Shown here piece after piece: positions 1,935-10,539 of a stretch of DNA of 14,000 bases; within the stretch, counting starts at the first letter, position 1; each line of letters opens with the position of its first letter. The position numbers and the translations under genes were made by a program. Origin of the DNA: Nitrospirota bacterium (GTDB lineage Bacteria; Nitrospirota; Thermodesulfovibrionia; Thermodesulfovibrionales; Dissulfurispiraceae); the NCBI GenBank assembly GCA_040758355.1, contig JBFLWF010000045.1, positions 1 through 14,000 of the forward strand. The letters run 5' to 3'. The notes beneath the pieces were generated by a model. That model saw only the letters and a list, made by a program, of their open reading frames with translations, had not been told where the DNA came from and made no database searches.

Positions 1935-2348
1935 TTATTTCTTCTGCATTCTCTCGCCTTTACGTTCCATCCTTTCTCCCTGCTTCTGCATGCGCTCGCC
2001 TTTTTTCTCCATCGTCTCTCCCTGTTTCTGCATCACCTCGCCTTTACGCTCCATTTTCTCTCCTGTCTTTTCCATTTTTTCGGCGGCCTTTTCCTGCCCT
2101 GCCTCTCTCATCTTCTCAGCCCTTTCCTGCAACATTTCGCCTTTCTGTTCCAGCATCTCGCCTCTCTTTCCCCTTCGCTCACCCTTCTTCTCCACAATCT
2201 CGCCGCGGTGTTCCCTTACTTCGCCTTTCTTTTCAAGGCGCTTTCCTGCCTTTTGTTTTGGCGTTGGTTTTTCTTCTGCTGTGCCTTGCGGAGCCTGCAC
2301 AAACACTATTCCTACGACCAACAACAATACATAAACCAGTTTCTTCAT
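1935..2348 (-). CDS. Putative secreted, highly charged heptad-repeat (coiled-coil-like) protein
   Basis: N-terminal signal-peptide-like segment MKKLVYVLLLVVGIVFVQA, then more than ten 7-aa units such as GEKMERK/GERMQKQ. GGAGG RBS upstream and a terminator downstream. Confidence 0.75.
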   Translation of the reverse strand: MKKLVYVLLLVVGIVFVQAPQGTAEEKPTPKQKAGKRLEKKGEVREHRGEIVEKKGERRGKRGEMLEQKGEMLQERAEKMREAGQEKAAEKMEKTGEKMERKGEVMQKQGETMEKKGERMQKQGERMERKGERMQKK

Positions 2349-2438
2349 TTTGCTTGCCTCCGAAAGTTTATTTTTGTTTTTAGTATATCACTTATAGGTT
2401 GTTTGTCAATTTTCAGGGCAAAATTTATGAAACAATTT

Positions 2439-2454
2439 TGTAATAAATGAAACA
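2439..2454 (+). promoter_or_regulatory. NifA-type upstream activator site TGT-N10-ACA
   Basis: TGT-AATAAATGAA-ACA, about 75 nt upstream of the -24/-12 element. Confidence 0.6.
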
Positions 2455-2477
2455 TAAATGTATTCATTAAAGGATAA

Positions 2478-3428
<951 letters not shown>

Positions 3429-3437
3429 GGAGGATAA

Positions 3438-4865
3438 ATGAGCACAGCAATTAAAGAGACTCAAAAATTGATTGAGGAAGTCATGGACGCATATCCAGAG
3501 AAGGCTAAGAAGGACAGGGCAAAGCATCTCGCTGCGAATGATCCGACAGGGCAGTGCAGCACCTGCCAGGTCAAATCCAATATAAAATCGAGGCCTGGCG
3601 TCATGACTGTCAGGGGATGCGCATACGCAGGGGCAAAAGGCGTTGTATGGGGTCCGGTAAAAGACCAGATTACCATAAGCCACGGTCCCATCGGATGCGG
3701 CCAGTATAGCTGGTGGGCGAGGAGGAATTATTACAACGGCCAGACAGGTATCGATACATTCGGCACAATGCATATTACAACAGACTTTCAGGAAAAGGAC
3801 ATCGTTTACGGAGGGGACAAAAATCTCCATGCAGCATTGCACGAATTGAAGGAACTATTCCCGCTGGCAAAGAGCATGGGCATACTCTCGGAATGTCCGG
3901 TTGGCCTTATAGGAGACGACATCGAGGCTGTATCTAAAAAGGCAGCAAAAGAACTTGGCATTCCGATCGTTCCTGTGCGCTGCGAAGGGTTCAGGGGCGT
4001 GAGCCAGTCCCTCGGCCATCACATTGCCAACGACACCATAAGGGATTATATCCTCGGCAAGGGACAGCTTGATAAATCCACTCCTTATGATGTCGCCCTT
4101 ATCGGTGATTACAACATAGGGGGCGATGCATGGGCATCGAGAAAGATGCTCGAAGAGGTGGGACTGAGGGTCATTGCACAGTGGACAGGTGATGCATCGA
4201 TAAACGAGATGGGTATTGCGAACAAGGCAAAGGTGAACCTCATCCACTGCTACCGCTCCATGAACTATATATGCAGGCATATGGAAGAGGAATACGGCAT
4301 TCCGTGGGTTGAGTTCAATTTCTTCGGGCCTACAAAGATATACCAGAGCCTGAGGAAGATAACATCTTACTTTGACGACAGGATTAAAGAGAATGCCGAG
4401 AAGATGATAGAAAAGTACAAGCCCGTTATGGACAAGATAATCGAGACATATCGGCCAAGGCTCGAAGGCAAGAAGGTGATGCTCTATGTCGGCGGACTCA
4501 GGCCGAGACATACTATCGGCGCATATGAAGACCTCGGTATGGAGGTTGTGGCATCAGGATATGAGTTCGGGCATAACGATGATTACAAGAGGACATACCC
4601 TGAGATGAAGGAAGGATCTGTAATTATGGATGACGCCACACTCTACGAACTTGAGGAGTTCACAAGAAGGCTCAGGCCGGACATGGTCGGCTCAGGCATA
4701 AAGGAGAAATATTCATACCATAAAATGGGAGTGCCTTTCAGGCAGATGCATTCATGGGATTACTCAGGGCCTTATCACGGCTTTGACGGATTCCCTGTTT
4801 TCGCCCGCGACATGGATATGACGGTAAACAGCCCCACATGGGATTTGATACGGAGGAAGAGATGA
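3438..4865 (+). CDS. nifD: Nitrogenase MoFe protein alpha chain
   Basis: P-cluster cysteines in RGCAYAG, GCGQYS and [18 protein letters not shown]; FeMo-co ligands in HCYRSMNY and QMHSWDY. Confidence 0.98.
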
Positions 4866-6388
4866 TAAGGTTAAAAATAAAAGACCATAACGAACTTTTT
4901 CAGGAGCAGGACTATCTTGAGCAGTTCGAAAGAAAAAAGGAGTTTGAGAACTGCCCTTCCGAAGAGGAGGTTCGGAGAATAGCCGAATGGACAAAGACAG
5001 AGGAGTATAAAGAAAAGAACTTTGCCCGTCAGCATATAAAGATCAACCCTGCAAAGGCGTGCCAGCCTTTAGGCGCTATCTTCTGCGCATCGGGATTTGA
5101 AGGCACAATGCCCTTTGTTCAGGGTGCGCAGGGCTGCGTGGCCTATTTCAGGAGCCATCTGAACAGGCATTTCAAGGAGCCTTTTGCAGCCATATCCACA
5201 TCCATGACAGAAGACGCTGCAGTCTTTGGCGGGTTGAACAACATGCTCGAAGGACTGGAGAACGCCTATACCCTTTACCATCCAAAGATGCTTGCAGTCT
5301 CCACGACCTGTATGGCTGAAGTCATCGGCGATGACCTGAACGCATTCATAAAACAGGCGAAAGACAAGGGTATTATCCCTAATGATATGTTAGTGCCCTT
5401 TGCCCATACGCCGAGCTTTGTGGGCTCTTACATTACAGGCTATGACAACATGCTGAAGGGGATACTCTCGACTATCACTGCGGGCAAGAAGAGCGAGGCT
5501 CACCATAAGATTGGTGAAAAAATAAACATCATTCCGGGCTTCGATACATATACCGGCGACTACCGGGAGATAAAAAGGCTTTTAGATATTATGGGTGTCA
5601 AGCATACCATATTGGCGGATGTCAGCAACATATTTGATTCTCCGAATACAGGAGAGTACAAGCTTTATCCCGGCGGCACACCTCTTGTGGATGCGGCTGA
5701 TTCGATAAACGCCACTGCGACCATTGCGCTCCAGAAGTATTCGACTCTGAAGACTATGGATTACATCAAAAAAGAGTGGAATCAGCAGACCCTTGCGCTT
5801 CCGCCTATCGGGGTAAAGAACACCGATCTGTTTTTTGAGGAAGCAAGCAGAATCACCGGAAAACCTATACCAAAGGAGATTGAGGATGAGAGAGGCCGCG
5901 CAGTGGATGCAATGATAGACTCCCACCCCTATGTGCACGGAAAGAGATTTGCTTTGGTCGGAGATCCGGACTTGCTTCTTGGAATGATAAGTTTCTTAAT
6001 GGAGATGGGAGGAGTGCCGGCGCATATCGTATGCACTATGGGCGACAAGAAGTTTGAAGAGGATGCATACAATCTCCTGAGCGAAAGTCTATTCGGAGCC
6101 GAGGGAAAGGTTTATATCGGCAAAGACATGTGGCATTTGAGGTCGCTTATGTTCACCGAGCCTGTTGATTTTCTCATAGGAAATTCATATGCGAAATTCT
6201 TATGGCGTGATACAGGCACGCCGCTTATCAGAATCGGCTTCCCGCTCTTTGACAGGCATCACCTCCACAGGTATCCGATTATCGGCTATCAGGGAGTGAT
6301 AAACCTCGTGAACTGGGTAGTAAATACCGTGCTTGATGAGATGGACAGAAAGACGATCAATACAACAAGCTTTGATGTAATAAGGTAA
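4862..6388 (+). CDS. nifK: Nitrogenase MoFe protein beta chain (508 aa)
   Basis: [34 protein letters not shown] and [12 protein letters not shown]. The start is ATG 4862 (ATGA overlap with the nifD stop, GGAGG upstream). Confidence 0.97.
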
Positions 6389-6403
6389 GAGAGGATCATA
6401 ACA

Positions 6404-9064
6404 ATGCTGAGCGGCATAGATAAATTAATGCAGAGCGGCTGTGAACGGGAGAAGAAGGAGAAAATCTGCCGTTCTCGCGGCGGAGAGTCATGCGCCTTTG
6501 ACGGCGCCATGATAGTGCTCCAGCCAATAGCCGATGCTGCACATATTGTCCATGGTCCTATTGCATGCTGCGGAAATTCATGGGAAGGCAGAGGCACATT
6601 ATCTTCGAAAGGCGACCTCCACAGAATGGGTTTTACAACAGATATGAGCGAGATGGATATTGTGTATGGCTCTGAAGAGAAGCTCTATAATGCAATTATT
6701 CAAACATATAAATCTGTAGAACCTAATGCCATATTTGTCCATGCCACATGCGTAAGCGGACTCATTGGCGAAGACATTGAAGCCGTATGCAGAAAGGCTG
6801 AAGAGTTTTTGAATTCTAAGGTGGATTCCGCAAGGGGGATGAAATCCCCCTTGCAAGTCATTCCTGTCAATGCTCCGGGATTTGTTGGCCCCAAGAACCT
6901 CGGCAACAGGATAGCAGGAGAGGTATTGCTCGATTATGTAATAGGTACAGGCGAGCTGCCTGAAGGGGACAGTCCCGATTCGGAGCCTGTCCCGCACAAC
7001 GATGCGGGAGCTTCGCTTCACTTCGCCCGTAAATCCGGGACAGTCCCCTTAATCAACCTCATCGGCGAATACAACATAGCAGGCGACCTATGGCTTGTAG
7101 AGCCTATTTTAAAGGAAGCAGGGATAAGAGTTCTTTCGAGGATTACAGGCGATTCAACTTTTGAAGAGATAACCTATGCTCACAGGGCAAAATTAAATGT
7201 AGTTGTATGCAGCCGTGCTTTGATAAATGTTGCAAAAGAGATGGAAAGGAGATACGGAATTCCATATATAGAGGTCTCATTTTTTGGGGAGACGGAGATG
7301 TCAAAGGCGATGAGGCTAATCGCCTCAAATTTCAAATCTCAAATTTCAAATCTCAAATTGGCAGATAAAATTGAATCCATTATTGATAGAGAAGAAGAAA
7401 GGCTTGCTGAAAGGCTCAAGGAATACCAACATCTAAAAGGCAAAAAGGCTGTGCTCTATACAGGCGGTGTGAAGAGTTGGTCGTTTATTTCTGCACTCAT
7501 GGATTTAGGTATAGAGATTGTAGCCATCGGAACGAAAAAGAGCACCTTTGAGGATGAGGAAAAGATGAAGGGAATCCTCGGTGAGGATGCACTCCTTGTC
7601 GAGGATGTTACTCCCAAAAATCTTCTCAGACTTATGAGGGAAAGGAATGCAGATATCCTTGTTGCCGGTGGAAGGAACCAGTATCTTGCCGTAAAAGAGG
7701 GGTATCCATTTGTGGATGTCAATCAGGAACGGCATACCGCATATGCAGGATACGAGGGACTGATAAATTTGGCTGAGCAGATAAGCAACAGCATGAGATT
7801 TTATAGCAGTCAGCAGTCAGCAATCAGCAATCAGCAAAAGAAAAAAGCTGAAGGCTGTAAGCTGAAAGCTGAGAGCTGTCTTATTAATCCTTTGAAGCAT
7901 TCCCAGTCTATAGGCGCTGCGATTGCGTTTCAGGGAATAGACAGGGCATTGCCCATTATTCACGGAGCGCAGGGCTGCACTTTTTTGGGAAAGGTGCTTT
8001 TGACAAAACATTTCAGGGAGCCTATCGCTTTGGCAAGCACAAAACTATTCACCGAAAATGTGGTGATGGGAAGCGAAGAGAATATCGCCAATACTGCAAA
8101 TGGGTTTATAGAGAAGAACAGACCGGATGTGATTGGTATTCTCACATCAGGACTCTCTGAAGTGAAAGGAGATGATGTTTCTGGCATCGTAAAGCAGCTT
8201 CAGGCCGAACACCATCAGTGCAATATTCTTAATGTTTCTACTCCTGATTATGAGGGCGGGCTTGAAGCAGGATATGTAAAGGCAGTGGAAGCACTACTAC
8301 AGTTCACAGTTCACAGTTCACGGTTTACAGAGGGACAGATTAATGTTCTTGTCGGGTCTCATCTTACGCCTGCGGATTTTACAGAATTAAGGGAAATAAT
8401 CGAATCGTTCGGTTTAAAGCCCATAATGCTTCCCGATCTTTCTGCGCTGGACGGCAGCAGGCAGGGGTTTTCTGCCTTAGCAACAGGCGGTACAAAAATA
8501 GATGAAATAAGGAATATGGGGGCATCTGCATTCACTATTGCCATAGGCACATGCATGGAGCCTGCTGCAATGATTTTAAAAGAAAGGTTCGGCATCGAAT
8601 ACAGGGTATTTGAAAGCATATCAGGGCTTAAGGATGCAGATATGTTTATGGAGGCGCTTTCCATGTTGAGCGGGAAACAGGCGCCGGCTAAATACGAGAG
8701 GCAGAGAAGGATTCTCATTGATGGAATGAGAGATGCGCATTTTTATTACGGCAATAAAAAAATCTGCGTTGCCCTTGAGCCGGATCTTTCGATGCAGACA
8801 GCGCATTGGCTTGAAGAGATGGGGGCAGAGGTTTTTGAAGTCGATACAACTGGAAGCGATCTATTTTCAGTCGAGGGAGATTTTAATCTTCTCATCTCGA
8901 ACTCCCATGCAGAAGATACGGCAAAAAGGCTCGGAGTGCCGCTATATCAGATGGGGTTTCCTGTGTATAAGATTTTAGGGCACACGAACAGGGTTACCAT
9001 AGGATATAGAGGGACTCTCGGACTTATTAACGATATCGCGAATTTAATGATGAGGGCGCACTAA
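6404..9064 (+). CDS. nifEN: Fused NifE-NifN FeMo-cofactor scaffold (886 aa)
   Basis: NifE motifs CAFDGAMIVL, HGPIAC, NLIGEYNIAG, YTGGVKSWS and DVNQER, followed in the same frame by NifN motifs NPLKHSQ and HGAQGCT...HFREPI. Confidence 0.95.
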   Translation: MLSGIDKLMQSGCEREKKEKICRSRGGESCAFDGAMIVLQPIADAAHIVHGPIACCGNSWEGRGTLSSKGDLHRMGFTTDMSEMDIVYGSEEKLYNAIIQTYKSVEPNAIFVHATCVSGLIGEDIEAVCRKAEEFLNSKVDSARGMKSPLQVIPVNAPGFVGPKNLGNRIAGEVLLDYVIGTGELPEGDSPDSEPVPHNDAGASLHFARKSGTVPLINLIGEYNIAGDLWLVEPILKEAGIRVLSRITGDSTFEEITYAHRAKLNVVVCSRALINVAKEMERRYGIPYIEVSFFGETEMSKAMRLIASNFKSQISNLKLADKIESIIDREEERLAERLKEYQHLKGKKAVLYTGGVKSWSFISALMDLGIEIVAIGTKKSTFEDEEKMKGILGEDALLVEDVTPKNLLRLMRERNADILVAGGRNQYLAVKEGYPFVDVNQERHTAYAGYEGLINLAEQISNSMRFYSSQQSAISNQQKKKAEGCKLKAESCLINPLKHSQSIGAAIAFQGIDRALPIIHGAQGCTFLGKVLLTKHFREPIALASTKLFTENVVMGSEENIANTANGFIEKNRPDVIGILTSGLSEVKGDDVSGIVKQLQAEHHQCNILNVSTPDYEGGLEAGYVKAVEALLQFTVHSSRFTEGQINVLVGSHLTPADFTELREIIESFGLKPIMLPDLSALDGSRQGFSALATGGTKIDEIRNMGASAFTIAIGTCMEPAAMILKERFGIEYRVFESISGLKDADMFMEALSMLSGKQAPAKYERQRRILIDGMRDAHFYYGNKKICVALEPDLSMQTAHWLEEMGAEVFEVDTTGSDLFSVEGDFNLLISNSHAEDTAKRLGVPLYQMGFPVYKILGHTNRVTIGYRGTLGLINDIANLMMRAH
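6830..6854. repeat. Perfect 11-bp palindrome inside nifEN
   Basis: GCAAGGGGGAT-GAA-ATCCCCCTTGC. Confidence 0.9.
6963..7050. repeat. 88-nt REP/MITE-like palindromic element, in frame in nifEN
   Basis: Ends AAGGGGACAGTCCCGATT and AATCCGGGACAGTCCCCTT form an imperfect inverted repeat; internal hairpin TCCCGCA-CAACGA-TGCGGGA at 6990-7009. Confidence 0.85.
7324..7358. repeat. Heptamer tandem repeat (YTCAAAT)x5 inside nifEN
   Basis: CTCAAAT TTCAAAT CTCAAAT TTCAAAT CTCAAAT. Confidence 0.9.
7804..7878. repeat. Inverted heptamer array (YAGCNNN x5 / GCTGNNN x5) at the NifE-NifN junction
   Basis: TAGCAGT CAGCAGT CAGCAAT CAGCAAT CAGCAAA, an A-rich spacer, then GCTGAAG GCTGTAA GCTGAAA GCTGAGA GCTG. Confidence 0.9.
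8300..8327. repeat. Heptamer tandem repeat (CAGTTCA)x3 plus one degenerate copy inside nifEN
   Basis: CAGTTCA CAGTTCA CAGTTCA CGGTTTA. Confidence 0.85.
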
Positions 9065-9133
9065 TATGTTGATGTTGTTATTGGCAAGACATAATATTTT
9101 CGCTCATTCTATACCGGCAATTATTGTGACTAA

Positions 9134-9268
9134 TGAAGGAAGGGCATGGTATTGAAGCGACTTGGACAGCCCAGGCGGATCACGGACAGAGGAGCGGGCT
9201 GTCCCTGCTTCGGAGGAAGGCTTGGATGCCTTCCGAGAATGAAGCGGAAATATCATGTCCTTCCTTCA
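9134..9268 (+). other. Multi-stem structured element between nifEN and nifX (candidate structured RNA or MITE-like repeat)
   Basis: A 20-bp outer stem 9134-9153/9249-9268 with two G-U pairs encloses stems GGACAGCCC/GGGCTGTCC (9164-9172/9196-9204) and GGAAGGC/GCCTTCC (9215-9221/9228-9234). Confidence 0.75.
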
Positions 9269-9284
9269 GATAGGAGGTGCGTTT

Positions 9285-9713
9285 ATGAAAGTTGCATTTG
9301 CGACAACAGACGGGGTCAATGTTGACGAGCATTTCGGCAGGGCAGGGATGTTCGCCATATACGAACTTACAAAAGACGGCTACAGGTTTGTTGAAATGAG
9401 GAAGTTTGCTGACGGCAGGGACACGGAAATCGAGGATACAAAAGGAATGGGTGATGTGCATGACGACAGGGTTCAAAGGAAAGTTGATAAGCTTTCGGAC
9501 TGCAAGATCGTGTATCTAACCGAAATAGGAGGCCATTCTGCAGCAAGGCTCGTAAAGAAAGGGATGATGCCCATTAAGGTTCACCCCGTTAGAAATGAAT
9601 TTTCTAACGGGGTAAAGGAGATAGTCTCTATTGAGGAGTCATTACAGAAACTTATAGAGACCCTTAAGAAATCGCCGCCGCCTTGGCTTAAAAAGGCGAT
9701 GAATAGCGATTAG
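9285..9713 (+). CDS. nifX: NifX FeMo-cofactor precursor carrier (142 aa)
   Basis: MKVAFATTDGVNVDEHFGRA, DCKIVYLTEIGG and C-terminal PPPWLKKAM. The start is ATG 9285 behind AGGAGG (9272-9277). Confidence 0.93.
   Translation: MKVAFATTDGVNVDEHFGRAGMFAIYELTKDGYRFVEMRKFADGRDTEIEDTKGMGDVHDDRVQRKVDKLSDCKIVYLTEIGGHSAARLVKKGMMPIKVHPVRNEFSNGVKEIVSIEESLQKLIETLKKSPPPWLKKAMNSD
9581..9613. repeat. 33-nt palindromic in-frame insert in nifX
   Basis: ACCCCGTTAGAAA-TGAAT-TTTCTAACGGGGT (perfect 13-bp stem, 9583-9613). Confidence 0.9.
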
Positions 9714-9791
9714 CTGTCAGCGATCAGCGTTCAGCAAGAGACACTTCAAATCATATTTTACTGATAGCTATTAGCTGAATGCTGATAGCTA
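9704..9791. repeat. Inverted heptamer array spanning the nifX stop and the nifX-nifI1 spacer
   Basis: TAGCGAT TAGCTGT CAGCGAT CAGCGTT CAGCAAG, a spacer, then ACTGATA GCTATTA GCTGAAT GCTGATA GCTA. Confidence 0.85.
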
Positions 9792-9808
9792 AAAAGGAGG
9801 AAATTACC

Positions 9809-10126
9809 ATGAAGATGATCAGGGCATTTATCAGACCGGAAAAGGAGCAGGAGGTTGTTCTTGCACTTGAGGGAGCGGGCTTCCCGTCCCTTACAAAGAT
9901 GCCTGTATTCGGAAGGGGAAAGCAGAAGGGGCTTCAGGTAGGTCCTGTGCATTACGACGAACTCCCAAAGACACTTATAATGACAGTCGTTGGTACCGAG
10001 GATGTGGACAAGGTTGTCAAGATAATTCAGGACAAGGCAAGGACAGGCTTCATAGGCGATGGAAAGATATTCGTAAGTCCTGTTGAGGCTGTATATACTG
10101 TGAGAACAGGAGAGTCGGGATTATGA
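9809..10126 (+). CDS. nifI1: P-II family nitrogen fixation regulator NifI1 (105 aa)
   Basis: MKMIRAFIRPEK, VFGRGKQKG, YDELPK and GDGKIFVSPV; first of a tandem P-II pair in a nif operon. The start is ATG 9809 behind AGGAGG. Confidence 0.9.
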   Translation: MKMIRAFIRPEKEQEVVLALEGAGFPSLTKMPVFGRGKQKGLQVGPVHYDELPKTLIMTVVGTEDVDKVVKIIQDKARTGFIGDGKIFVSPVEAVYTVRTGESGL

Positions 10127-10539
10127 AAGAGATTACCGCAATTATCAGAAGGGACAAGCTTCCGGAGACAAAGCAGGTGCTTGAGGAACTGGGCTATCCA
10201 TCCCTCACAATCCAGAGTGTTGAGGGAAGGGGAAAACAGAAGGGCGCTATGTGTGCTGAGATGGATTCGGAGATGCCTGACAGTTTTTGCACCGCAGTTA
10301 AGCTGACTCCCACACCTTCAGCATACGCCCTTGAGCATACCTTGCCTAAGGTTGCCCTTTATGTGCCTAAAAGGATGCTCACGATAGTTGTGCCGGATGA
10401 TGTGGTGAGCAAGGTAGTGAAGTCAATAATAAAGGCGAATCAGACAGGAAAGCGTGGAGACGGAAAGATATTTGTTTCGCCGATTGAAGGCGCTGTGAGG
10501 GTGAGGACAGGGGAGAAGGACGGAGAGGCGATAGCGTAA
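10123..10539 (+). CDS. nifI2: P-II family nitrogen fixation regulator NifI2
   Basis: MKEITAIIR, GRGKQKG, an extended T-loop, PKRMLTIVV, NQTGKRGDGKIFV and RVRTGE; ATGA overlap with nifI1. Confidence 0.9.
   Translation: MKEITAIIRRDKLPETKQVLEELGYPSLTIQSVEGRGKQKGAMCAEMDSEMPDSFCTAVKLTPTPSAYALEHTLPKVALYVPKRMLTIVVPDDVVSKVVKSIIKANQTGKRGDGKIFVSPIEGAVRVRTGEKDGEAIA

Follow-up and report, generated by a model that had tools for sequence, protein, structure and literature searches.

nifEN and nifX contain in-frame repeat elements

Here, we analyze the 14-kb contig JBFLWF010000045.1, which in its entirety forms the window of this study (contig C45 of genome G000; 2.77 Mb, 43.6% GC, 93 contigs), and in particular the small repeat elements that lie inside its fused nifEN gene and its nifX gene. 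Pfam and open reading frame (ORF) analysis shows that the window holds a complete nif cluster, in which nifHDK are followed by nifEN and nifX (Table 1). The elements are eight in number: A through E lie within nifEN, F lies within nifX, and G and H are intergenic. A, B, and F are hairpins or palindromes resembling MITEs (miniature transposable elements with inverted repeats), and C, D, and E are arrays of heptanucleotide units. Altogether, we consider it probable that nifEN and nifX carry in-frame copies of genome-wide repeat DNA (A through F), which would likely be translated as extra or rewritten surface loops.

Table 1. Genes of the nif cluster that bear on this study and repeat elements A through H, with positions counted from the first nucleotide of the window
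Feature	Position	Strand	Description	Support
nifH	2586-3428			
nifD	3438-4865			
nifK	4862-6388			
nifEN	6404-9064	+	Fused gene, 886 aa, single open frame; hosts elements A-E	Pfam Oxidored_nitro, 3 stretches, E 3.7e-192
nifX	9285-9713	+	142 aa counted from the ATG behind GGAGG; hosts element F	Pfam Nitro_FeMo-Co, E 1.9e-15
A	6830-6854	+	Perfect 11-bp-stem hairpin (GCAAGGGGGAT/ATCCCCCTTGC), part of peptide NSKVDSARGMKSPLQ	Inverted-repeat scan, 6830-6840/6844-6854 (11 nt, 100%); fold -20.8 kcal/mol
B	6963-7050	+	88-nt MITE-like palindrome, termini AAGGGGACAGTCCCG, peptide GDSPDSEPVPHNDAGASLHFARKSGTVP	Inverted-repeat scan, 6963-6977/7036-7050 (15 nt, 93%); fold -43.0 kcal/mol
C	7324-7359	+	Heptamer array (CAAATYT x5), peptide SNFKSQISNLK	Period-7 array 7325-7359, score 56-72
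D	7804-7878	+	Two inverted heptamer arrays (CAGCAGT/CAGCAAT ... AGCTGAA) forming the NifE-NifN linker	Period-7 arrays 7805-7837 and 7844-7878; fold -34.5 kcal/mol
E	8299-8330	+	Heptamer array (CAGTTCA x4.6), peptide QFTVHSSRF	Period-7 array 8299-8330, score 50
F	9580-9616	+	Hairpin (ACCCCGTTAGAAA/TTTCTAACGGGGT), peptide (V)HPVRNEFSNG in NifX	Inverted-repeat scan, 9580-9595/9601-9616 (16 nt, 94%); fold -21.0 kcal/mol
G	9703-9791	.	Inverted heptamer-array pair (TCAGCGN ... NTGCTGA)	Period-7 array 9705-9735, score 34-41; fold -29.6 kcal/mol
H	9093-9254	.	Intergenic MITE-like element with terminal inverted repeats, between nifEN and nifX	Fold -65.9 kcal/mol

An earlier note, made from the letters of the sequence, had claimed eight small repeat elements within 3 kb, six of them inside ORFs that they leave unbroken. 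All eight are in place, as checked with Tandem Repeats Finder (TRF; the source of the period-7 arrays in Table 1), an inverted-repeat scan, and ORF analysis for the six in-ORF elements, across which the nifEN and nifX frames are open. Four heptamer arrays with a score of at least 40 were observed, compared with zero in each of 200 codon shuffles, and two perfect hairpins of at least 10 nt, compared with a shuffle mean of 0.2. The accompanying claim that nifHDK are free of such elements also holds: these genes contain no period-7 array by TRF, no perfect hairpin, and no repeated stretch in a blastn-short comparison of the window with the genome. A single 16-mer flagged in nifK by the 16-mer repeat scan is a chance match.

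The description of nifEN-nifX as a “hotspot” is moderately supported once the whole genome is considered. For this comparison, genes were approximated by greedily chosen ORFs of at least 100 aa (2457 genes, 89% coding). Its four heptamer arrays tie nifEN for the most per gene, a number that 4 of the 2457 ORF proxies reach; on a general 16-mer repeat measure, however, it holds three segments, and 51 of the 2457 ORFs hold at least three. Because of these counts, nifEN ranks among the most loaded genes but is not unique. Likewise, since 3914 of the 5096 3-kb windows in the genome lack a heptamer array, finding none in the 3.8 kb of nifHDK is unremarkable within this genome.

Palindromic elements A, B, and F

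To see whether the elements are insertions, we aligned the window NifEN with the fused NifEN of 19 relatives, which range from the same genus to the same order (51-83% identity by blastp). At site A, the codon alignment gives a net gain of 36 nt, with 45 nt in the window where 18 of the 19 relatives have 9 nt; L018, from another genus, has a similar hairpin (GCGAGGGGGAC...GTCCCCTTGC) at this site. On a contig from metagenome X4, the 53 nt around A are reduced to 17 nt (-36) in frame, leaving the orthologue-like reading A-E-R-E-I-E-I-R-V-I-P.

Element B has 15-nt terminal inverted repeats that match at 14 of 15 positions. Its net contribution is 72 nt for an 88-nt element, and the native loop codons are gone. 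In L014, L012, and L011 the site is empty and holds a short native loop instead; B is near-identical in L010, shorter in L002, and longer in L019, and L003 through L006 carry other inserts at the same site. We did not count the X4 joints at B (6964->7052 and 6908->7052, with sides of 22-30 nt) as support for an empty site. Element F is a clean 33-nt insertion into ...CCCATTAAG|GTGAAGGAG..., with GT flanking it on both sides. Its 11-codon block occurs in 1 of 20 NifX sequences, that of the window, and is absent from all 19 relatives, whose NifX measures 129-132 aa over the aligned stretch; on an X4 contig, 87 nt at this position become 54 nt (-33). A related strain sampled in another metagenome thus lacks both A and F.

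Two of the three palindromes belong to dispersed families. The B family has 22 paired copies in the genome, 35-117 nt long, of which 15 are in ORFs, 5 are intergenic, and 2 lie at gene edges. Its consensus is GGGGACWGTCCC(G/A)AWTCTACG...core...CGTAAWTCTGGGACWGTCCCC, and its termini are stop-free in three frames and both orientations, reading GDSP, GTVP, GQSP, GDCP, or GLSP; being stop-free is the property needed for survival inside genes. The F family occupies about 13 loci, which keep the stems but differ in the loops; most are intergenic, and 3-5 are in ORF proxies.

Several loci show palindromes combined with other repeats. At positions ~24100-24180 of contig C15 and ~8680-8740 of contig C24, in a cytidylyltransferase gene and trpE, F-type hairpins are bordered on both sides by inverted heptamer arrays (GACCCTT/AAGGGTC), and such composites point to a link between the two repeat classes. 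In a YfiH-like gene (C7:40859-40973), a B-type element encloses a copy of an “HCE..SDEAIS” repeat. In G036 and G010, this repeat also constitutes the NifE-NifN linker, and it is dispersed in each of the five genomes that we searched. Furthermore, the NifE-NifN linker of L163 (genome G022, 5713-5805) holds a B-family element of the same subfamily as two B copies in a glycosyltransferase gene of G000 (C23:34909 and C23:35209), with the common peptide GTV(P/Q)DLR(T/A)GSSMALGE.VESGLSP.

Heptamer arrays C, D, and E and the intergenic elements

The heptamer arrays show a different relation to the orthologues. The C array is common to L002, L012, and L019 and degenerate in L003, and the corresponding loop in L004 and L011 is filled by other heptamer families, at about equal loop length among the orthologues. 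For E, an orthologous array is present in L002, L014, and L003, a degenerate one in L011, and a different heptamer array in L012, with no change in length within the genus. These arrays look like microsatellite-type DNA rather than transposed units.

The NifE-NifN linker, which in the window is formed by D, is hypervariable among the relatives. At a TRF threshold of 24, heptamer arrays, often as inverted pairs, occur in 5 of 19 linkers (the window, L148, L150, L156, and L157). By eye, the linkers of L149, L153, and L163 contain dispersed elements; those of L155 and L159 have a motif in common with L163, and the remaining nine, from more distant relatives, have no obvious repeat.

Of the two intergenic elements, G spans the nifX stop codon and the nifX-nifI1 spacer. 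H, of ~160 nt, belongs to a family of about 14 copies in the genome, mostly intergenic. Contigs of X2, X3, and X4 lack 87 nt of it (9153-9239), a segment with a 7-nt TGAAGCG repeat at its bounds.

Predicted position of the elements in the NifEN protein

The best match of the window NifEN in the PDB is the solved 919-aa natural fusion NifEN 9i0g_A (E 1.4e-212), followed by the NifE (3pdi_A, E 2.2e-121) and NifN (3pdi_B, E 1.9e-81) of A. vinelandii. Its NifE-like and NifN-like halves are homologous to solved NifEN and it lies in a nif-operon context, identifying it as the NifEN scaffold. The fusion is present in all 20 relatives' loci examined. In the window's own genome, a search with this query gave no insert-free NifEN paralogue. 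It is also found in the cultured Thermodesulfovibrio sp. TK110, which has a fused nifEN in the gene order nifHDKENXIIB and reduces acetylene (PMC12501866). TK110 and the window have in common the nifHDK-EN-X-I-I-B order and the single nifEN frame, and nitrogenase activity was reported for TK110; repeat inserts are not mentioned in the available text of that paper (PMC12501866).

To locate the inserts, we used an AlphaFold2 model of NifEN built on the 19-sequence alignment (mean predicted local distance difference test score [pLDDT] 73.5, predicted template modeling score 0.50). In this model, A (aa 143-151) is a coil between helix 125-139 and strand 151-156, and B (aa 187-216) is a coil that lies between helix 164-179 and strand 216-220 and whose residues 187-212 have pLDDT <50. 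C (aa 308-319) forms a turn between helices 296-311 and 318-344, D (aa 468-492) lies in a disordered linker (pLDDT <50 over 470-498), and E (aa 633-643) occupies a loop between helix 620-634 and strand 645-650. As such, this mapping, of a kind that the earlier note had proposed, places all five nifEN elements between secondary-structure elements or in the E-N linker, and their predicted location is the protein surface. Unlike the window NifEN, 9i0g_A is without inserts A and B in the alignment, which shows a 12-residue gap at A and leaves query residues 187-214 (B) unaligned; at this second site, the NifE of A. vinelandii bears a longer loop of its own. The inserts are likely translated as extra or rewritten surface loops.

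Indels in NifEN and in the catalytic subunits of relatives

The same relatives allow the nitrogenase proteins to be compared across genomes. NifH has no indel block, NifD has three (the widest of 2 columns), NifK has five (the widest of 4 columns), and NifX has two, each counted over 20 genomes. NifEN, over 19 genomes, has 13 indel blocks, 9 of which are 5-53 columns wide, for 205 gap columns in total. The contrast between the catalytic subunits and the scaffold and carrier proteins is real and becomes convincing across genomes. Of the earlier proposal that elements are tolerated in scaffold and carrier proteins and purged from the catalytic subunits, the contrast itself is supported over 20 genomes; the sparing of nifHDK within this one genome is not statistically notable. 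The pattern fits ordinary differences in indel tolerance rather than a nif-specific process.

The inserts of the relatives are themselves repeats. We searched three lineage-specific NifEN inserts in five genomes: a 162-nt insert of G001 at the C site is matched 6 times in G001; a 96-nt insert of G029 at the E site, 5 times in G029 and 10 times in G036; and a 123-nt insert in the linker of G036 (L149), 23 times in G036, with matches to it in each of the five genomes. Thus, all three are dispersed repeats in their own genomes, and different elements recur at the same five or six NifEN sites in different genera. From the indel blocks and the dispersed inserts, it follows that the NifEN of this order has five or six permissive sites that take up different repeat families in each lineage.

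The elements are spread over the genome

The elements are not specific to nif genes and are spread over hundreds of unrelated genes. By TRF (score ≥40), the genome contains 296 heptamer arrays with 94 canonical units. Fully inside ORFs of at least 100 aa are 232 of them, 170 of these at least 30 codons from either end, and a further 38 are intergenic and 26 straddle an ORF end. Among array pairs, at least 17 are inverted and 2 are direct; D and G are of the inverted type. Period-8 arrays behave in the opposite manner, with 56 of 130 (TRF score ≥40) intergenic and 47 inside ORFs.

For the palindromes, we ran Pfam on 18 ORFs that host B or F copies. Copies lie inside the Pfam envelopes of CofH/MqnC, QueC, IspD, PrmC, a YfiH-like protein, a cytidylyltransferase, and TrpE, the last two being the F copies. 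Other copies lie in linkers between domains, in CobB, in two histidine kinases, and in an AAA-SH3 protein, and another five or six cases, near N-termini or in unassigned regions, are ambiguous. A scan for 16-mers with at least three copies yielded 1390 repeat segments, of which 746 are in ORFs (of 513 genes), 488 are intergenic, and 156 lie at gene edges; the short non-tandem in-ORF segments number 472 in 343 genes. These counts are an upper bound because they include chance and paralogue matches (e.g., in nifK and nifB). A 13-mer scan was too noisy (16177 segments) and was set aside in favor of the 16-mers.

The B family also extends beyond this genome. With a B-terminus 17-mer containing one W as the query, a species-representative collection of 596 Gb returned at least 127 stretches, of which 80 were listed. 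By our own estimate, chance would produce on the order of 100 matches to such a 17-mer in 596 Gb. Because single matches are near this level, only genomes with several loci were counted, and single matches in Streptomyces, Guyparkeria, and archaeal metagenome-assembled genomes (MAGs) were disregarded. Among the matches listed, several loci each were found in an unlabelled MAG (12), Nitrospira sp. (6), Thermodesulfobacteriota (6), Nitrospirae (5), Planctomycetota (5), Nitrospiraceae (3), Desulfuromonadales (3), Deltaproteobacteria (3), two Nitrospirae MAGs (2 each), Poribacteria (2), and two further unlabelled MAGs (2 each). Given these multi-locus genomes among the matches listed, the B family is common to anaerobic or groundwater lineages of several phyla.

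Origin of the elements and alternative explanations

Our preferred explanation of these results is as follows. The palindromes would be non-autonomous selfish elements, moved or copied by an enzyme encoded elsewhere, and the heptamer arrays would expand and be renewed through slippage-type processes. Either class could land anywhere in the genome, and selection would keep only those events in which a multiple of three is restored, no stop codon arises, and the loop is permissive. With its free linker and its five or six loops that tolerate inserts, the NifEN scaffold would accumulate such elements, and NifH, NifD, and NifK, being catalytic and tightly packed, would not.

The window contains no mobilizing enzyme, as the earlier note had said, and the genome encodes two Y1 transposase genes of the IS200/RAYT type (PF01797; RAYT, REP-associated tyrosine transposase; REP, repetitive extragenic palindromic), at C10:9216-9881 and C21:12713-13216. 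The former is intact and flanked by inverted copies of TAGGGACAGCGAC (AAATAGGGACAGCGAC). This motif occurs about 10 times in the genome, in each case between genes; it differs from A, B, and F and has only GGGACAG in common with B. This gene and TAGGGACAGCGAC form a small REP/RAYT-like system that is separate from the nifEN elements.

Several results weigh against the explanation we prefer. A link of A, B, and F to the RAYT-type genes was not supported, since the Y1 genes are flanked by another motif. No autonomous partner of B, in the form of a pair of B termini 300-5000 nt apart, was found in this genome, in which no transposase is tied to any element family, and there is no consistent target-site duplication, only the GT at F and the 7-nt repeat at H. 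In-ORF B copies have lengths of 0 (7 copies), 2 (7 copies), or 1 (1 copy) modulo 3 and resemble the intergenic copies; the split by coding versus intergenic location and length modulo 3 that the earlier note had proposed shows no difference for B. Since element length does not explain how the frame is kept, a second step or a replacement mechanism is needed. In nifEN, the net gains of 36 nt (A) and 72 nt (B) arise because native codons were replaced, and frame repair would involve either a second, selected deletion after insertion or entry by a conversion-like replacement. Because orthologous loops have about equal length, C and E are rewritten loops rather than net insertions, an outcome that partly fulfills what the earlier note had named as refuting its proposal. 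Moreover, A as such is single-copy, although 42 AAGGGG...CCCCTT hairpins are present in the genome. Finally, recurrence at the same NifEN sites could reflect site preference and not selection alone. The idea that several non-autonomous families write new loops into proteins consequently stands for A, B, and F as indels relative to the orthologues and for B, F, H, and the heptamers as multi-copy repeats, but not for C and E as insertions or for A as a repeat.

Some of these points favor a purely local origin, in which none of the eight elements was transposed and each formed locally through slippage, through synthesis templated by a hairpin, or through gene conversion from one dispersed copy to another. 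The loops at C and E were replaced at constant length, a single site can hold different heptamer families, A and B stand in place of native codons instead of simply interrupting them, duplications and a linked transposase are lacking, and the H deletion is bounded by a 7-nt direct repeat. F, however, is a clean 33-nt insertion at an otherwise unchanged site, and B and F, with conserved termini and variable cores, occur at ~22 and ~13 unrelated loci. In addition, B-type termini are multi-copy in MAGs of several phyla (among the matches listed), which implies movement between sites and probably between genomes. We therefore regard a local origin of all eight as unlikely. It is more doubtful still that the hairpins and inverted arrays are selected cis-elements of the nif operon, acting as mRNA or DNA structures on segmental stability or processing of the transcript, or on pausing of translation, between nifHDK and nifEN-X-I1I2, with the peptide loops as a by-product. 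That idea would account for the clustering of eight strong RNA structures (-20.8 to -65.9 kcal/mol) downstream of nifHDK, for G and H flanking nifX in spacers, and for the conservation of the C and E arrays in several genera. Yet the families are also found in unrelated genes and spacers genome-wide, A, F, and H are missing from close strains or from relatives that have the same operon, and each relative has different elements at these sites. Rfam gave no family at gathering score on the window, and a promoter and terminator scan of 2300-10200 returned counts at shuffle level, with no promoter or terminator-like site on any element.

Two further alternatives would remove the inserts from the mature proteins or from the DNA itself. 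Were they intervening sequences excised from RNA or protein, NifEN and NifX would be insert-free; at 25-88 nt, however, the inserts are far below the size of inteins or group I/II introns, Rfam finds no intron or ribozyme, the frames are open and stop-free (which excision would not require), and the shared elements change in frame among relatives, making this very improbable. An origin in assembly or binning is hardly credible. The genome is a MAG, and the breaks between its 93 contigs fall at repeats, but contigs from two independent metagenomes carry A, B, D, E, F, and G gap-free (X2, from groundwater, at 93-99% identity, and X3), and the genomes of other species have B, C, and E at orthologous sites. 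The elements were not created by assembly.

Comparison with known repeat systems

In-frame palindromic colonization of genes is known mainly from Rickettsia, where it has been linked to a reduced, intracellular lifestyle. Rickettsia palindromic elements (RPEs) are palindromic repeats found in frame in unrelated metabolic genes, at positions compatible with the protein fold (Ogata et al. 2000, as summarized in PMC10969869). The palindromes described here are likewise small, lack a transposase, and lie in frame in unrelated metabolic genes (PMC10969869); they would encode a peptide, at sites that the model predicts to be coils. Specifically, the palindromes lack coding capacity and are multi-copy (B 22, F ~13; A is single-copy), and A, B, and F lie in frame in conserved genes and are absent from orthologues among the 19 relatives. 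In contrast to RPEs, the sequences are unrelated and the elements measure 25-117 nt rather than about 150 bp (PMC10969869). Furthermore, the host is a free-living groundwater Nitrospirota rather than an obligate intracellular bacterium, the B termini are read in all three frames rather than as one conserved peptide, and the elements coexist with in-frame heptamer arrays. The likeness claimed is one of functional analogy, not of sequence membership.

Likeness to REP sequences and REPINs (PMC3733652) is found in A and F, imperfect palindromes of 25-37 nt in which stems are conserved and loops vary, and in the two Y1_Tnp genes of the genome, one of them flanked by inverted copies of a short motif. 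However, A and F have low copy numbers (1 and ~13, not hundreds) and many copies are intragenic; the Y1-flanking TAGGGACAGCGAC is not A, B, or F sequence, and by eye A and F bear no GTAG/CGTC head. A RAYT gene flanked by the same dispersed palindromes is lacking in this genome, and instead of extragenic repeats at high copy number we find 15 of 22 B and 3-5 of ~13 F copies in ORF proxies and copy numbers in the tens. Intragenic bacterial MITEs such as ERIC, BOX, and those of Anabaena have documented in-frame fusions with host ORFs (PMC10969869). B and H resemble MITEs in having terminal inverted repeats, a size of 35-160 nt, multiple copies, no coding capacity for a transposase, and presence/absence polymorphism; target-site duplications and an autonomous insertion sequence with the same ends were not found in this genome.

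The heptamer arrays resemble long simple sequence repeats (LSSRs) and the short tandemly repeated repetitive (STRR) sequences of cyanobacteria, which are heptanucleotide repeats. Common to them are tandem 7-nt units in several families, abundance genome-wide, and 3-10 copies per array; the arrays here also exceed chance, with none in 200 shuffles of either of two regions of 3.4-3.8 kb. Among LSSRs, 7-nt units are the most abundant class, and repeats in coding regions are mostly multiples of three (Mrazek et al. 2007, as summarized in PMC4679880); the TAACTGA repeats of Beggiatoaceae are described as intergenic (PMC4679880). A mainly intergenic location is also described for cyanobacterial heptamers. 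Here, by contrast, most arrays are intragenic (232 of 296 in ORFs) and often form inverted pairs that fold into long hairpins. Keyword searches of open-access literature brought up no article that deals with repeat inserts in nifEN or with any of these families. Altogether, the palindromes are RPE-like, the heptamers are microsatellite-like, and nifEN-nifX is a heavily colonized but ordinary example of a genome-wide phenomenon.

What is added by this case is that the same outcome is now seen in a free-living groundwater diazotroph and in a metallocluster scaffold with solved structures. It provides a natural map of the NifEN sites that tolerate insertions of 10-30 residues, namely five loops and the linker, which is useful to nif engineers, with 9i0g/9i0h as the best template for mapping insert sites; across an order, NifH, NifD, and NifK tolerate no such insertions. 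It also serves as a warning for the annotation of such MAGs, in which peptides such as GDSP...GTVP or SNFKSQISNLK are repeat DNA and not conserved protein features. A broader proposal, which we put forward tentatively and consider rather unlikely, is that stop-free hairpins (with ends GGGGACWGTCCC and others) and heptamer arrays act as “loop writers” of housekeeping enzymes in free-living anaerobes of several phyla, on a scale of a hundred genes. In that case, the same five or six NifEN loops would be hit through a site or structure preference beyond selection, the NifE-NifN linker would be kept as a landing pad, and an RPE-like process would operate outside intracellular bacteria with native codons replaced and the frame restored. 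The interest of the system would rise if the site preference or a loop-replacing mechanism were true.

Other features of the contig

On the 3' side of nifX, the window contains nifI1 and nifI2 (PII-type), a ferredoxin gene, and nifB; it also has genes for a ThiF/MoeB-like protein and for a MOT1-type molybdate transporter. Among the relatives, an open frame of ~1000 aa had suggested a NifD-NifK fusion in some, and the ORFs proved to be separate, at 475-536 and 507-594 aa. Both ends of the contig (1-126 and 13874-14000) are 100% identical to the ends of ~15 other contigs each, such that they are assembly breaks at two different high-copy repeats; by eye, we take the 5' repeat to be like the 3' end of an IS3-type transposase gene. 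Since both ends are high-copy repeats, the nif cluster is bounded by multi-copy mobile DNA. Just upstream of nifH, on the minus strand, a 137-aa ORF (1935-2348) overlaps TRF arrays at 1941-2231 and has no Pfam match. It encodes an N-terminal hydrophobic segment followed by 42-nt (14-aa) tandem repeats rich in Lys, Glu, Arg, and Gly.

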